Source of the DNA: Macrostomum lignano
Taxonomy: Eukaryota
Assembly: GCA_002269645.1 (NCBI GenBank)
Contig: NIVC01002746.1
Span: 79,708-143,707, forward strand
DNA length: 64,000 nt
Direction: 5' to 3'
Both the position numbers and the translations under genes were made by a program. The notes below the pieces were generated by a model, which saw nothing but the letters and a program-made list of their open reading frames with translations, was not told the origin of the DNA and did not search any database. This document shows, piece after piece, positions 4,623-49,133 of the stretch; position 1 is the first letter of the stretch; each line of letters begins with the position of its first letter.

Positions 4623-4791
4623 CGGCCGACCGAATTTTGGAGGTTGCGCATGTATGGACAAGAGTGAGACAAGAGTGATATTGTATGCTTGATAATACAA
4701 TATCAAGCATCCCGACTGCAGAAGAATACACCATTATTTATTATGCTCTCAATAAATCGTTTTTTCAACCTATGGTTGAAATATAGGTTTC

Positions 4792-5026
4792 TTAGAAATG
4801 AACTGAAGACCGGTATGAACGAATGCGTAAATCACGAGGGCTGAAGGCCCGACGGATTTATAAAATAGCTGCCGAAAAAGGCATGCCTTATATAGTCAAA
4901 AAGATTTTACGGGACATTATTGAATATTGGCAAATAAAATCCCGGAGAACACAAATAATGCCCGGAAAATGTTTTTATCTATGTTTTATGCAAATTCGTT
5001 GATACCGGTCTTCAGTTCATTTCTAA
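4792..5026. mobile_element. MITE with ~33-bp terminal inverted repeats
   Basis: TTAGAAATGAACTGAAGACCGGTATGAACGAAT versus reverse complement at 4994-5026 (1 mismatch); TA at both ends fits a Tc1/mariner-type target. Confidence 0.75.
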
Positions 5027-5073
5027 CAAATCGAGCGTAGCGTTCTACTGCAGTTGTAAATGGCTGTTGAAAG

Positions 5074-6092: not shown

Positions 6093-7277
6093 TCAGTAGC
6101 AGAGCTGCTGGAGCAGCCGAAACTCAGACTCGTTGAGCATCTCACTGCTCAGGGCAAAGCAACTCATTGTGCCGCTCAGACATCTGTCACTTGTGGGCCC
6201 GAATCCGAGTCGCAGGCAGTGAAAGGACGCCGCTGAAGAGTTCCAAGAACTTCTACTAAACGAAGACGTCGCAACCAGCGTGCCGTTCTGATACATGCGC
6301 TTCTGCTCCAGCCCGTTGAAGGTGACTCCAGCCGACAGGAGACGCACCGAGCCGTCAGTCGGTAGAAAAAAAGACGAAAATCCGAAAATTCTCTCACCGA
6401 CACTCCCGCCGCCGCTGGACAGCCAGGCGAAACCGTAGAAATAATCTGCTTTCTTGATCAGAGAGCTGCCGATGTTGGTTCCTGAGCACTCTTGGAATCG
6501 GCTGTAGTACTGATACCTGCTTGTGCAGCGGTAGAGGCGCGGCTAGAAGGTGAGCAGCGGTTTCAAAGCATCACAGACAGTTTCAACTCACTCGTCTTTA
6601 GTCATGGCGTGCCGAACCTGCGCAAAAGTCGAGTAGGTGGAACCGACTCCCAGAAGCTTCTCAAAACCGGGAGTCTCAGTGCTCAAGTAGGAGCTCGTGT
6701 TGCCCTTGAAGTGAGCACCAACTGCATCAATTGTCACATCGTGAGCCCTGAGACAGGACAGTCTCGTGTTGACCTCATTCTTCAGACCGCTCCGAGAGAA
6801 CTTGTAGAACAGCTTCAGCTTGAGCGGTTTGACCAGGGGCTCAGAAGACTCTGCAGTGGAACAGATCAATTTAAATCAATTTAAACAAAGCAAATGACTT
6901 CATTGGAGCGATACAGAATTGTCAAGACAGCTGCAGCCACTGAGCCGCTCACCGCAGTCTCCGCACAGCACATCGGTGTACTTGTAAGAGTCGCAGTCGC
7001 CGTCAGTCCATTGCTCGAGTTGAGAACACGCGTCTCCATGGTAACACAGGCGGGTGGTAATGTCGAAGTGGAATGCGTTGCAGGTGGGCAGTCGGGAGCA
7101 GGCGGCGGCGCACTGCAGCTTGCTGGCCAGGCGGTGCGGCAGCGGAGAGGCGGCCGCGGTGGGGCAGCGTCGGGTCTTTGTTGCTGCGAAGTTTGGCAGC
7201 ACCTTGGCGCTTGAAGTCGCCGCCAGGCAGCTGAGCAGCAGGAGGCAGGGCAGAGTCGACAGTCGAATCTTTTTCAT
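6093..7277 (-). CDS. Secreted PAN/Apple-domain + LamG/ConA-like protein, copy A; join(7277..6953,6850..6592,6516..6093), ~335 aa
   Basis: Signal peptide, PAN motif CAAAC..CNAFHFD...C, GT-AG introns close the frame (1008 nt), C-terminal GVTFNG...MYQNG...LRLG...FAL pattern. Confidence 0.75.
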
Positions 7278-8178
7278 TTCCTGTATTAGCAGACACTTTT
7301 CAAATCAAATTAACTGCTCAAAAATTAAGAACGGTTCAGAAGACATCCCATTCTACATTTATAAATGTAGGATTTGTTAGCTGTGTTAAATTTTCCTTGC
7401 TGAGTGCCTTTCAAGCACCTACATATATTTGTCCAGTGTTTAAAACACGCACAGTTCTCACGCCTCACACAATGGCCACAATTCCCGGATGGAATGTTTA
7501 CAGAATCCCTTTGAATAGGTACGCGCAAACTCAGTATCCAGAGTTCTAATTGTGAAATCGAAATTTCAAATACTGGAGCAGTGACCATGGTGCATATTCG
7601 AATAAATGTCACATTTTTTGCATAACAAAATTAAACTCGGGTTTACTACCGACTTCGAACTTTTCTGAATGTATTGGAACATCCTAAAACCTATTGGGAA
7701 CTTGATAAAAATTGACTGACGGTGCCGAATCGGAGACAGGCGTGGGCTGTTTTACCCAATATCATGCATCCCGACTGCAGAGGAATGTACAACTCTTACT
7801 TGTTCCGATTTCCACCTTGCCTGATGCAAGCAAAACTGCGCGTCCCGCCTTCAGAATTGTCGGATTTGCGTTTGATTCGGGTCGCTTCAATTCCAGTTAG
7901 CTTTTTAAAAATACATGCAAGGATACAGTCGCTGTTCAAACAAAAAATGCTTCATATTGTTTGACATTCTGCATGCTGCTGTCAGGCCTGACATCCATGC
8001 TTTTGATAAAAGCATCGATACTTGCTGAGTACAAAACAAAGAGAAACTCAACTTTTCTGAATTTGCAACCAGCTAGAAGGCAGAGGTGATCAAATAAGCC
8101 AGCACGAGTCAGATTTTCCTATAAAGGTAAAATAGAGAGCAACTGAGTGAATCAGCAGGCATCGATCGAAACCAAGCC

Positions 8179-9375
8179 ATGATGAAACGGAGTAAACTCC
8201 AAGCTAGGATGAATTACTTTTTAGCTCTGCTTCTTTCACTGGTCTCTTTCAGACTTGCTGCTGCTGCTGCTGAGCTGTCATTCGAGAAGACCCGACGCTG
8301 CCCCACCGCGGCCGCCTCTCCGCTGCCGCACCGCCTGGCCAGCAAGCTGCAGTGCGCCGCCGCCTGCTCCCGACTGCCCACCTGCAACGCATTCCACTTC
8401 GACATCGCCACCCGCCTGTGTTACCATGGAGACGCGTGTTCCCAACTCGAGCAATGGACTGACGGCGACTGCGCGACTCTTACAAGTACACCGATGTGCT
8501 GTGCGGAGACTGCGGTGAGCGGCTCAGCGGCTGCTGTCTTGACAGCTCTGCGTCTCTCCAATGAAATCATTTACTTTGTTTAAACTGATTATAAATTTAT
8601 CACTGCAGAGTCTTCTGAGCCCTTGGTGAAACAGCTCAAGCTGAAGCTGTTCTACAAGTTCTCTCGGAGCGGTCTGAAGAATGAGGTCAACCCGAGAATG
8701 TCCTGTCTCAAGGCTCACGATGTAACAGTTGATGCAGCTGGTGCTCACTTCAAGGGCAACACGGGCTCCTATCTGAGCACTGAGACTCCCGGTTTTGAGA
8801 AGTTTCTGGGAGTCGGTTCCACCTACTCGACTTTTGCTCAGGTTCGGCACGTTTTTACTAGCGGGTGAGTCGTTTTCGCTAGACTTGAGCAGATAGATTA
8901 GCTCGTACATGCATTTCGTAGTGCTTGACCATGAGAATGCTATCACTGCAGGAGACAGTACTACAGCAGGTTCCAGGCGTGCTCGGGCAGTGGCATTGGT
9001 TGCTCGCTCATCAAGAATGATGATTACTTTTACGGCTATGCCTGGCTGTCCGCTGACGGTACTGTTGGTGAGAAGATATACGGCTATTCGAGCTATTTTC
9101 TGCCGGTTGACGGAGCTGAGCACCTGTTCTCTGCTGGGGTTACCTTCGACCGGAACGGACACCAGCGCGTGTACCAAAACGGATCGCTGGTCGGAGTTTC
9201 ACGAACTTCAAATGCCCCTCTTGATCGATCAAACGTGGTGTTTCAGTGCCTGCGACTCGGCTCGTCATCAAGCGATGCAACCTGTCTAAAAGGTAGCATG
9301 CTGTGCTTTGCGCTGAGCACGAAACTTCTCAATAAAACAGAGTTTCTGCGGCTGCAACAGGTGTGCAACGAGTAG
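8179..9375 (+). pseudogene. PAN/Apple + LamG-like copy B; join(8179..8514,8609..8864,8952..9375) with a 2-nt (CG) insertion near 8472
   Basis: Inverted paralog of copy A with the same intron positions; GACTGCGCGACTC versus GACTGCGACTC shifts the frame (real or assembly error). Confidence 0.7.
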
Positions 9376-18400: not shown

Positions 18401-21400
18401 TACTCCCTACCTCTCATCTCTACTCCTTATCTCTCATCCCTATCTCTTATCTCTACCCCATACCTCCTCATCTCTACCCCATACCTCCTCATCTCTACCC
18501 CATACCTCCTCATTTCTACCCTATACATCTCATCTCTACCCCATACCTCTTATCTCTACCCCATACCTCCTCATTTCTACCCCATACATCTCATCTCTAC
18601 CACATACCTCTCATCTCTACCCCATACCTCTCATCTCTACCCCATACCTCTCATCTCTACCACATACCTCTTATCTCTACCACATACCTCTTATCTCTAC
18701 CCCTACCTCTCATCTCTATACTTAACTCTCATCTCTAAATCTCACCTCAGCCCCAAATTCTCATCTCTAATCCTATCAACTATTCAATGGCTCCTTCATC
18801 AGTCTTCCAGCCTCCCAAAACAGCCTCACCTGATACATTGGCCGGCTGTGCCACAGCTGTTTCCTAACCAGAATGCACAGATCATCCTGCAGAGCCTGCC
18901 TACCGCCACCGCAGCCTCTGTAAGCCAGCCTGGCCAATGCGGAGTACAGCAGCCTGGCCTGACCCGGGCCCAGCTGGTGCAGCACGTCCAGCGCCGCACG
19001 GAGCAGAGCGGCGAAACTGGCCAGCTCAGTTGGCCAAGCGTCGGCCACATCGACGAGGCATTGCAGCGCGTGATCTGGCTCGGAGCCAAGACGGCTCAGC
19101 AGGCAGGCGACCAGGCTCTGCTGCCAGTGCGGAGACAGGCAGCCAAACATGTCGGAGCTGACTGCCCGAGCCCAGCTCTGCCCAGCTGCCAATGACGATG
19201 AGTCAGCGGCGGCGCTGTTAGCTGCCAGACCGTCGAGTAAGTCGACAAGCTGTTCAGCCATCCGCCTGGCCAGCACCGGGTGATGACAGCGAAGGTCGGC
19301 GCCGCACCTGGCCGGCAGGCGGCGGTTGCGAATCAGCGACCGGCAGAGGCGGAGCACGGCTTGCCGACGGCGTCGGGAGTTTCGAGAGCTGCCGCCGCCG
19401 CCGCTTCTGCGAGCGGCACTAAAAGCAGCGGCGAGGACAAGCAGATCGACTAGATGAAGACTGTCGACAGAACTCTGACGCTGCTGCTGCTGTTCCGTAA
19501 CAGCTGTTGTTGTTGCTGCTGTTGTTGTCGAAGTTGGGAATGCCTCGATAGCACGAAGCCAACAATCGGCTAGTTGAGGGCTGCAATAATATTTTATAAT
19601 CATATCATAATTAGACTACTGTCAGTAAAGAAAATAGAATTTTAAGCGCTTTTTACTAAGAAAAACAAAAAATGATTCCGAAATTTTTTGTTAACTCATA
19701 TTTTATTTGAATTATCAATGACTTTATAATTACTGAGATTCACATGTACAATCCCTGTGCACCCTTAGGGGCTGGCTCTCATGGCTGTGACTCGCGACAA
19801 CTCCTTTCAAGGCCAATTTGGCAGAAACTAACAAAACTGTTTCTATATATGGGTGTTATAGTTTTAAAGACAGGTTTCACCGGAAAAATACACTACGGAG
19901 ATAGGAAATTTCACGTTTTTTAACACTAAAACAGTGATTGGGTCTCTTAACAGTGTCAGAGAAAGTTCTAATCACGCTATTTTGTGCCTTACATGCTGCT
20001 CTAAGGATGCATTAATCGATTTTTCATATTAAATTGGTCTTGTCATTTATTTTAAACGTTTTTTTTCAAGTTCAAGTTGCATCCTACATATATGTTACTT
20101 CAGTAGTCCTTGATCGGCCACTGTACATTGCGTCCCCTCTCTCCCTGCAGCCAATCAGCTTCGGTCTATAGCACTAGCAATTTAATGGCCTGGACAATTA
20201 AATGAAAAATTAATAAAATTAAATGACAGTCTAGACTAATTGGTGGGCCATGTATGGTATTAACTAAGTTAGGAAAATAATTACAAATTAGTACTACTAG
20301 TAGTAAGCTAATCAGATTTAGTTTTAATTTGATTTGATTGGTCAGGCCAATAAAAAAATAACTGTCCAGGCCATTAAATTGCAAGCGAGATAGACCGAAG
20401 CTGATGATTGGCTGGCAGGAAGAGAGGGGACGCAATGCCTGATTGGCTGGCAGGAAGAGAGGGGACGCAATGTCTGATTGGCTGCAGGAAGAGAGGGGAC
20501 GCAATGTCTGATTGGCTGCAGGAAGAGAGGGGACGCAATGTCTGATTGGCTGCAGGAAGAGAGGGGACGCAATGTCTGATTGGCTGCAGGAAGAGAGGGG
20601 ACGCAATGTCTGATTGGCTGCACTGCAGGGAGAGAGGGGACGCAATGTCTGATTGGCTGGCAGGAAGAGAGGGGACGCAATGTCTGATTGGCTGGCAGGA
20701 AGAGAGGGGACGCAATGTCTGATTGGCTGGCAGGAAGAGAGGGGACGCAATGTCTGATTGGCTGCAGGAAGAGAGGGGACGCAATGTCTGATTGGCTGCA
20801 GGGAGAGAGGGGACGCAATGTCTGATTGGCTGCAGGGAGAGAGGGGGCGCAATGTCTGATTGCCTGCACTGCAGGGAGAGAGGGGGCGCAATGTCTGATT
20901 GGCTGGCAGGGAGAGTGGGGACGCAATGTCTGATTGGCTGGCAGGGAGAGTGGGGACGCAATGTCTGATTGGCTGGCAGGGAGAGTGGGGACGCAATGTC
21001 TGATTGGCTGCAGGAAGAGAGGGGACGCAATGTCTGATTGGCTGCAGGGAGAGAGGGGACGCAATGTCTGATTGGCTGCAGGGAGAGAGGGGACGCAATG
21101 TCTGATTGGCTGGCAGGGAGAGTGGGGACGCAATGTCTGATTGGCTGGCAGGGACAGAGGGGACGCAATGTACAGTGGACATAACTATCATCTCATACAT
21201 TATCCTACACTTAACTAGCTACTCACTTCGCTGCTAATTTCCGTTGCACCAACTCGCAGACCAGAGACTCGGCAGTTTCAGTAGCCGCCGCAGAAGCGGC
21301 CAAGTTAGCTGCAGATGAAGCAGCATTCGGCGCCATCGGCTGGATGCCGCTGATATTTAAGCTGGCCCAGCTGCCGCCCGTGTCTCCCGGCTGTTGCGTG

Positions 21401-32004: not shown

Positions 32005-39735
<7,731 letters not shown>

Positions 39736-47455: not shown

Positions 47456-47559
47456 TGAAATAGATGCTTTCGGAGCATGGTGACCACACCTGCACTATTT
47501 TAGTATTTTGCACTATTTTTATTTTTCTGCTCAATTGCACAACTATTTTTGAAATACAC

Positions 47560-48416
47560 TAATAAATTTCACTAACTGCTCAAAAACTTTGAGAAGTTGG
47601 TTCAACGTGAAGCTACGCAACGCAGGTTCAACGTTGAACCTGCTATCAGCCGCTCTTGACCAGGTTTGTAGCGACATGCTGCTCAGATTTGTTCGTCCTG
47701 ACGTGGTGGAGGCGGCAACATCACTCTCCAATCTCTTCACTGCTGCAAAGGATCACTCTAACCAGCTAGTCAACGCTGAGCTGAGGAGCCAACATCAGGA
47801 CCACTATTGGCCGCCTGCCCAAAATAGATCGAGTGGGCTTTTTAAGGCAGTGCGAGACTTCTATGTTGAGCTCACCAGTCGCTTCTTTGCCTACCTGCCG
47901 TTGGAAAGCAAACTTCTACGAGCTTGCGCTTTGTTGACCCACATCAACTGCTCGATCACCAATTGAATTTGGAAGAGACGGTCATCCTGATTGCTAAGGC
48001 TATGCCGACTGTAATTGAACCCGCTCGTCTAGACGACCTGTGACTGGAGGTCATTAAGTTGCGTTGAATGCTTTGATTTAGGAGCTCGCTAGAGTCAAAG
48101 AACCGGAGAAGTTCTGGGCCGCATTGCCATGTGAGGAATTTCTATGCCTACCGCATAGAAACGCCGACAGTGAGCGGGTCATCAAATGGATTGCCAACAA
48201 TGTCACGAAGCAGCGAAACCAGCTGGCCGATTATACACTGGACTGTCCTTTGTCCATCAAGTCCTGGCTAAAGGGAAAAAGAGCCATCCGATTTTTGCAC
48301 TGACCGCTCGCTGTTGGTCCTCAGTTTTGATGCCTGTGCAAACGCTGAAGCACGTGCTAAGGCAAAGGAGCGTGAAGAAGTAATGAACCGCCTTCAGAAA
48401 AAGCTAAACATGCAGC
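47560..48416 (+). pseudogene. Degenerate hAT transposase, C-terminal part
   Basis: AVRDFYVEL...LP.ESKLL, then PHRNADSERV...TKQRNQL (hAT dimerisation-domain S.ER.FS...RN.L pattern); frameshifts and stops. Confidence 0.65.
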
Positions 48417-48684
48417 AGTAGTAGGGAAAAAGACGCGTACAGACCCAGAGCACTTTTTAAATAGCAGTTTTAAGGGTCTAGAGGGGGGACACGGGGGGGT
48501 AAATAAAAAAACACATCTAAACACCCTTAACACATCTAAACACCCATAATCACCCACAACCCCCCTTAATACCAAAAAAGCAATATAACCCACCCCCAAC
48601 ACTCCCCCTCGTGTCCCCCCTCTGGAACCTTATAAACGGCCATTAAAAAAGGTCTGATCTGTACGCGTCTTTTTCCCTACTACT
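48417..48684. repeat. Terminal foldback: ~83-bp inverted arms (48417-48499 and ~48604-48684), outer 27 bp identical
   Basis: AGTAGTAGGGAAAAAGACGCGTACAGA at 48417 and its exact reverse complement at 48658-48684. Confidence 0.92.
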
Positions 48685-49133
48685 ACACATCCCAACACTC
48701 CCCAACACTTCTAACACTTCCAAATCTCTATAACCCCTCGCACGCGCCGCAGGCGCGAAGGGGCACAGTCTGACCCAAACTGAGTCATAGAAAAGGAACA
48801 GTGTTTAACTATCTTAAAGCAGCTCACAAAAAGAAAAACTTTGCATGATCACCCCAAAGGGTCGCAGACAGTCTAATGACTAACGCGGGAATTCGGGGTT
48901 TCTATTATACTCATCATTTACCGAAGCGCAAACCTCAGACTCAAACTGGCTACAACGGGAAGGTGAGTTGCTTACTCATGAAAAGCGCTTTTATTATTTT
49001 CAGCACTCCACCCCAAGCTTTAATTGTGTGTATAAGAATGATGAAATCTAAAAAACTAGCCACAGCAAATAGTCTCTTATTTATGCACAACTCCTAATAT
49101 CTGTCTTTTACAAGAACTAACAAACGTATTATC

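Follow-up and report, generated by a model that had tools for sequence, protein, structure and literature searches.

Polintons/Mavericks are described as elements with 5'-(AGT)2//(ACT)2-3' ends and terminal inverted repeats (TIRs) of 46-1447 bp (PMC8097293; bioRxiv 10.1101/2023.08.22.554363), and (AGT)2 is reported as the commonest Maverick end motif (PMC8097293). Their replication is an inferred model, in which the two TIRs of a single strand pair end to end (PMC4196379; bioRxiv 10.64898/2026.07.28.741278). The element considered here, from a 64,000-nt stretch of Macrostomum lignano DNA (the window), resembles them in its end motif, in its pPolB, protease and probable capsid genes and ATPase, and, if an estimate of 676 bp holds, in the length of its TIR. 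In the available descriptions, however, the TIRs of Polintons/Mavericks pair left with right only, whereas the window TIR holds a second, inverted tip.

A panhandle model has also been put forward for adenovirus and PRD1, including for ITR repair, although direct evidence of the panhandle is still lacking (PMC11886824). As in that model, a strand displaced from the window element would rebuild a duplex end through inverted repeats, a process also invoked to restore homology between ends. The adenovirus and PRD1 partner is the far genome end, whereas the window partner lies less than 200 nt away and has no free protein-capped 5' end. Older adenovirus papers are said to describe embedded ITRs. 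In the terminal hairpins of parvoviruses and AAV, and in snap-back genomes, the 3' end primes itself on an internal inverted copy, as the window end could. Unlike these, the window element has a long unpaired loop and is a protein-primed duplex, and the 14 window ORFs scanned, from an element that extends beyond the window, gave no Pfam match to a HUH/Rep nuclease. MITEs and foldback derivatives of DNA transposons are short units with a perfect outer and an imperfect inner inverted repeat, as in the window unit, which differs from MITEs in having no TSD and in being continuous with the TIR interior in several variants.

Terminal fold-backs have published relatives. Terminal palindromes (52 nt in subtype 5) occur in four virophage subtypes of Halocafeteria seosinensis and in one PLV subtype (subtype 4), and hairpin priming or accidental annealing has been suggested for them (bioRxiv 10.64898/2026.07.28.741278). 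Like these, the window fold-back is strictly terminal in an integrated, Polinton-related element, starting directly at the boundary (48417), and is present in some subtypes only. The short spacer and the non-pPolB replicase are not shared: as described, the Halocafeteria palindromes were searched for with gaps of at most 10 nt, in a protist, and mostly accompany non-pPolB replicases, whereas the window has 83-bp arms around a 104-nt loop in an animal element that encodes pPolB. No description of a spaced, nested inverted tip in an animal Polinton, or of Macrostomum Polinton ends, was found in the available full-text literature, including the accessible part of PMC11296320, which describes no nested tips; Repbase and the TIR alignments of PMC8097293 could hold such structures.

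A fold-back unit at the left end of a degraded Polinton/Maverick

The 268-bp unit at 48417-48684 is the left end of a degraded Polinton/Maverick, as an earlier sequence-only reading had proposed: the (AGT)2 end motif sits at the insertion boundary (48416/48417) and Polinton genes lie downstream. The features are as follows.

47553-48416, plus strand: host flank, a broken multi-copy transposase-like remnant and the insertion target of the Polinton; its last 6 bp (48411-48416) are the candidate left TSD
48417-48499, plus strand: outer arm, 83 nt; the true left terminus, beginning with the (AGT)2 end motif
48417-48443: outer-arm core; a G-rich box stands at the inner end of the arm
48500-48603, plus strand: loop, 104 nt, C/A-rich, with short slipped repeats; unpaired in the fold
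48604-48684, minus strand: inner arm, 81 nt; inverted copy of the first ~83 bp, stopping exactly at the terminal base
48685-48733, plus strand: second C/A-rich tract, with strand bias as in the loop; its length differs between copies
48734-48763, plus strand: small G+C-rich hairpin (-10.2 kcal/mol), near the inner limit of the sequence common to high-copy relatives
48764-49092, plus strand: probable remainder of the TIR, giving an inferred TIR total of ~676 bp
49134-50021, plus strand: first gene, 271 aa after splicing out a 72-nt GT-AG intron (49858-49929)
52353-55813, plus strand: pPolB with endonuclease VII insert (PF02945, E 8e-7), in three frames against P0002
59989-60432, minus strand: adenain-type maturation protease (Atlas features 0.97, Peptidase_C5 clusters)
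60652-61476, minus strand: probable minor capsid (penton) protein (Atlas 0.96-0.97, DUF5901 and V18-19 clusters), a lead only
61457-62179, minus strand: probable packaging ATPase, in pieces; Walker A-like motif by eye, no relevant Pfam match
62298-63803, minus strand: probable double-jelly-roll major capsid gene, in pieces; PF21738 at E 0.0014, below cut-off; five short frames

The outer and inner arms are reverse complements that match in 73 of 84 columns of a global alignment (84.5% by BLAST, E 2e-19), and the first ~83 bp do recur inverted within the left end, as had been claimed. The inner copy, said to lie about 185 bp inside, is roughly so placed, with a measured start 187 nt from the tip. 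Columns 1-27 of the alignment are identical, ten of the 11 differences fall in columns 28-64 and one in columns 65-84. The reported identity of the outer 27 bp is thereby upheld, whereas the inner part is not simply diverged, since the block with the G-rich box is also highly identical. The probability that all 11 differences miss columns 1-27 by chance is ~0.01, and Fisher tests give p 0.0035 for core versus middle and 0.076 for G-box versus middle; the block limits were set post hoc, which makes these values optimistic. Selection on an origin core, which the identity had been taken to imply, is only one of three explanations for it, together with repeated copying from the outer arm and capture of a sister subfamily's end.

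With up to three mismatches allowed, the 21-nt tip occurs at exactly two window sites (48417 on the plus strand and 48664-48684 on the minus strand), where none is expected by chance. The similarity of the inner arm ends at the terminal base, without run-on into the host flank. No TSD surrounds the 268-bp unit, and the earlier observation to that effect is correct: the 6-mer at 48411-48416 differs from that at 48685-48690. The DNA after the unit had also been said to resemble its loop, and both are indeed C/A-rich, with a plus-strand G content of 1% at 48500-48601 and 0% at 48685-48735. As the two tracts share this strand bias, the arm lies inside one continuous tract. A 19-bp tandem repeat is found inside the loop (48510-48549), and a 13-bp direct repeat is common to the loop end (48595-48607) and the second C/A tract (48691-48703; E 1.9, not significant alone). 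Two of the nine G-quadruplex motifs of the window lie at 48474-48499 (plus strand) and 48589-48620 (minus strand).

Folded as DNA, the 268 nt reach -71.1 kcal/mol (z -14.0), and none of 200 shuffles is equally stable. In the computed fold of the minus strand, the 3'-terminal base is paired and the template continues inward. The sequence-only reading had suggested that a displaced strand could snap back locally and rebuild a duplex origin; the predicted fold allows this for the minus strand only, where the paired 3' end could equally act as a hairpin primer.

Downstream, a morphogenesis module (protease, ATPase, major and minor capsid) is present, in which the capsid and ATPase assignments are weaker than that of the protease. 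The protease ORF gave no Pfam or PDB sequence match, and the longer first frame of the probable major capsid gene no match. The pPolB has 529 homologues; among the 120 listed, identities are 39-53% and at least four carry PF03175. A PDB search with polymerase alignment A2 returned only zinc-finger and endonuclease VII chains. The polymerase of the window copy is broken by two frameshifts. An rve integrase was matched neither in 14 and 11 window ORFs nor by tblastn with the integrase of L015, a Polinton-like contig described below; the element runs past the window end at 64000, so that its right TIR lies beyond the sequence analysed. The first gene is 99% identical to P0121, a protein labelled Macrostomum lignano in a cluster of eight, and 52% identical to a second Macrostomum lignano cluster of six proteins, while the alignment of P0126 to its residues 1-271 contains a gap of 24 codons. 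Intact vertebrate Mavericks are reported to have intronless core genes (PMC8097293). Two minus-strand ORFs by the protease (58083-59608) look like accessory fibre-type genes, one with a weak YadA-stalk match (E 0.013).

The host flank has many variant positions and a weak hAT dimerisation match (E 0.058, below cut-off). Dense minisatellite arrays (4153-47455), with periods from 2 to >60 bp, occupy much of the host DNA left of the Polinton. A ~2.6-kb element at 6417-9051, whose inverted arms are long (93-98% over 260 and 187 nt), is possibly a foldback or Mutator-type transposon, and short MITE-like inverted repeats are found at 4788-5030, 20154-20405 and 34110-34261, with arms of 37, 47 and 60 nt.

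Variants and depth in sequencing runs

Contigs of four of 20 listed runs (X1, X6, X13 and X18) were aligned to 47900-49700 at 85% likeness. The four runs come from as many studies and carry two organism labels between them; other runs, with shares of 0.14-0.15, were left out, and the best-matching runs may include the source sample. The evidence on variants comes from 40 of 170 substitutions, 12 of 30 indels, 24 of 135 loose ends, 32 of 733 pieces and six joints.

Together these contigs locate the insertion boundary between 48416 and 48417. In run X1, loose ends occur on both sides of 48416, representing the flank repeat without the element (two contigs) and the tip with other flanks, and the empty-site continuation behind 48416 is unlike the sequence after 48684. 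At joints 48687-48727 (X13, depth 34) and 48687-48732 (X1, depth 301), the same downstream DNA comes after the inner tip across a shorter spacer; these joints have short sides of 24-30 letters at 85% likeness and are flagged weak. An X13 loose end before 48726 (three contigs) has the inner tip and downstream DNA with a variant core, and an X6 loose end before 48743, from the second organism, fits the inner-tip layout in the last tip letters visible. In an armless form (X18, depth 604), 48555 is connected to 48685 through 23 other letters, the inner arm being absent. Near-zero cover of X18 at 48571-48631 and the lack of X6 cover at 48632-48692 were not counted as absence. The variant tip core, with ~5 of 29 differences by eye, stands beside both outer-type sequence (X18, 48441) and inner-type sequence (X1, 48660; X13), and at 48459 most outer arms carry the inner arm's base, not that of the window copy. 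One X6 contig tracks 48743-49092 and then continues with 255+ unlike letters, for which a diverged relative is the alternative reading to the end of the TIR.

As the inner tip and the same downstream DNA occur in further variants, the fold-back is neither a stand-alone MITE at this locus nor unique to the window copy. The unit had been judged integral to the element, and that judgement survives both objections raised in advance: at this locus a free unit flanked by TSDs is contradicted by the lack of a TSD and of empty-site sequence after 48684, and a unique or chimeric copy by the inner tip and downstream DNA of the other variants. Sharing of the structure by other copies applies to several variants (X1, X13), but not to the abundant X18 form, and junction support extends to the joints of inner tip and downstream DNA in independent runs, but not to a contig across the whole unit, none being present among the 32 of 733 pieces listed. 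Since an abundant relative has no inner arm, the arm is not required across the group. The fold-back end is real and heritable, but optional.

Depth relative to ORF1 is 65x (X13), 41x (X1) and 26x (X18) on the outer arm; in the same order it is 6, 2.7 and 0.1x and 10, 3.5 and 3.6x in the inner-arm bins and 22x, 14x and 18x just past the inner tip, reaching body level near 48767, where summed contig depth is not equal to copy number. The terminal excess is absent from X6. It had been proposed that the inner copy could fire to make 268-bp mini-replicons, which the depth does not support: the excess is greatest over the outer arm and continues beyond the inner tip as far as ~48767. As for dispersed free copies with unrelated flanks on both sides, the excess does not follow the limits of the 268-bp unit, and 24 of 135 loose ends were listed. 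The terminal depth of 14-65x body over 48417-48767 (~350 bp) in three runs suggests a large family of short or diverged elements sharing this end. The diverged continuation after 48767 retains a TGAGTCA motif, also found at ~48780, which we take to be AP-1-like.

Terminal fold-backs in other elements

Polymerase profiles yielded 100 loci, which were scanned with the window from 6202 AG-type anchors, using plus-strand matches only. A tip-anchored inverted copy 60-700 nt away was found in L007 (257 bp), L020 (200 bp) and the window. The L007 arms meet at the centre with almost no loop. A motif at the left edge of the sister L008, in which no inverted tip copy was found, shares homology with the L007 tip (score 45, against 31 for the best of 1000 shuffles). 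A third, direct 17-bp tip copy lies in L007 between a small ORF and the pPolB start (L007:948-964). The 200-bp unit of L020 has similar AGTAG ends and lies ~900 bp from a pPolB gene; it is not counted as a Polinton end, since its association with that gene is only putative. Local fold-backs at L067, L070 (with a 12-bp direct flank repeat) and L072 failed the tip-motif scan and were treated as unrelated MITEs.

Altogether 29 ends were tested, three of them preselected as positive. None of the other 26, which are non-independent and include several that are only TIR edges or contig starts, has a tip-anchored inverted copy 100-1000 nt inside. Five of the 26 beat all 200 shuffles, four through short hairpins within the first 71 nt and one through a marginal match not at the tip. 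One contig, L015:16-16779, is a near-complete 16.8-kb linear Polinton-like element; it encodes an rve integrase, its TIRs are 108 bp long and its first 61 nt include a short hairpin.

A further 77 stretches came from G004-G008, mostly from G005, a bin rich in Polinton-like elements, of which 23 ends were folded. A terminal hairpin of ~62 nt is present at all 16 T2 ends (from the first base in 13; -15 to -23 kcal/mol) and at none of the seven ends of the sister group T1 (-5 to -8 kcal/mol). Three T2 elements bear the hairpin at both ends, and a C/A-rich tract follows it, as in the window. The T2 elements have no AG ends, no TSD at two pairs checked by eye and no integrase in the 12 ORFs of one element; they are therefore relatives, not members of the same family. 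The pattern of window variants with and without a fold-back thus recurs in L007 versus L008 and in T2 versus T1.

G005 is filed as a bacterial MAG, yet its 100 Polinton-polymerase matches, spread over dozens of contigs, suggest a bin of eukaryotic Polinton-like elements; one to eight such matches are found in each of several further MAGs. In G005 elements such as C30, C77 and C579 the pPolB C-terminal match is split in two, at a position common to many copies and with ~1.3-2.5 kb between the parts, which points to an intron or an inserted gene. At L125:17651-19019 (G005:C579), the genes of a TATA-binding protein (PF00352, E 2e-18) and a TFIIB-like protein are neighbours in a Polinton-like element that has pPolB and an A32-like ATPase. 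The exact 21-nt tip had no match in viral or metagenome contigs, and a degenerate 20-nt version none in viral contigs. In viral contigs, neither the N-terminal piece of the polymerase nor alignment A2 led to a confirmed relative, and A2 led to none in genome contigs either, whereas the broader alignment A4 did recover relatives.

Origin and role of the inner arm

It is proposed, with a probability of about one half, that the fold-back unit is a built-in TIR feature of one Polinton subfamily that arose by fold-back template-switch duplication and may serve as an optional local panhandle or hairpin primer. A template switch is suggested because the inner copy ends at the terminal base, is embedded in a single unbroken C/A tract and begins at a point where a C-run can pair with the G-run that closes the outer arm. 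On the free linear form of the genome, a plus strand being synthesised from a primer at the left end would have stalled in the C/A-rich tract, and its C-run would have paired with the G-run closing its own outer arm. The strand would then have used its own first ~83 nt as template up to the terminal base, run off and rejoined the C/A tract. The rearranged end would have passed to several copies, an inheritance visible in the variants, while repeated copying or selection may have kept the tip core in step between the arms. When the far origin fires, the displaced minus strand could fold its 3' end onto the inner copy, as computed, which would form an 83-bp panhandle locally, independently of the far TIR, and offer either a duplex origin or a hairpin primer. 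The fold-back would be dispensable, since close relatives spread without it.

Some points tell against this reading. Although it lies farthest from the tip, the G-rich box is almost as well conserved as the core (one of 20 positions differs), contrary to the prediction of simple run-off copying; the polymerase of this copy is broken; and a nested insertion followed by deletion would give identical junctions. The latter would apply if a sister Polinton had inserted in the C/A tract of the TIR and had later been deleted save for its last ~81 bp, a neutral capture that we regard as unlikely. The inner arm would then be the terminus of another subfamily, and its conservation pattern that among real termini; two conserved blocks round a variable middle are the expectation for sister termini and are explained better by capture than by a template switch. 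An integrase would also produce an outer junction at the terminal base, inner-type sequence is abundant (depths of 2959, 6519 and 260 at 48644, against 4246, 17462 and 982 at 48459, in X13, X1 and X18), and the inner arm's base at 48459 is common to most outer arms. Against this, on the inward side of the inner arm the sequence keeps the C/A-rich orientation of the host TIR, where a captured end should have brought the G/T-rich complement, the variant core on both arm types would need exchange or repeated capture, and the L007 arms meet with almost no loop. It is rather more doubtful that the inner end is itself active, firing as an origin or being cut by integrase, so that the 268-bp unit would be a mini-replicon or MITE and the high-copy terminal DNA its progeny. 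The perfect 27-bp core at both unit ends, the outer-arm excess of 26-65x in three runs and the L020 unit near its pPolB gene are consistent with such activity, but there is neither a TSD nor empty-site sequence after 48684, the excess drops on the inner-arm bins (0.1-10x) before climbing past the inner tip (14-22x) on the way to ~48767, and no host-DNA loose end lies behind 48684 among the 24 of 135 listed. Internal protein-primed origins are also generally inefficient, which counts against this activity.

An obligatory role in the window's subfamily, with a parvovirus-style second-strand start from the hairpin 3' end and later resolution at the tip core, is improbable. The geometry of the minus-strand fold, the retention of the arm in several variants and the fixed hairpin of the G005 T2 elements, at both ends in three of them, would agree with it, and the same model has been proposed for the 52-nt palindromes (bioRxiv 10.64898/2026.07.28.741278). 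Those palindromes, however, are described there as mostly accompanying non-pPolB elements, whereas the window element retains pPolB and the (AGT)2 repeat typical of protein priming; a 104-nt loop and diverged middle are unlike tight priming hairpins, no resolving nuclease was found among the ORFs scanned, and relatives exist without the arm. An assembly or long-read chimera peculiar to this record is very improbable. It would account for the lack of a listed contig spanning the unit, for the scarce X18 cover from loop to inner arm and for frameshifts in several genes, which are possibly assembly errors, but in a fold-back read chimera the copied arm should be nearly identical to the outer one, whereas the arms differ at 11 of 84 columns, and the inner tip is joined to downstream DNA in independent runs.

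The preferred reading, of an optional, built-in fold-back, could be extended to a bolder one that we hold to be a long shot: that some Polinton lineages have, more than once, acquired ends at which the second strand is made from a local, self-primed hairpin instead of a genome-long panhandle, and that the same tip also releases ~270-bp protein-capped mini-replicons. If true, adenovirus-type and parvovirus-type end replication would be combined in one animal element, with both forms within one laboratory species. If the arm is merely a tolerated by-product, it would still be a trace of replication on a free linear genome, of modest importance. For annotators, the nearest inverted copy of a Polinton tip may not be the far end. 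A locally pairing terminus, present and absent among sister subfamilies in three data sets, offers a natural comparison for TIR pairing, hairpin priming and end repair.
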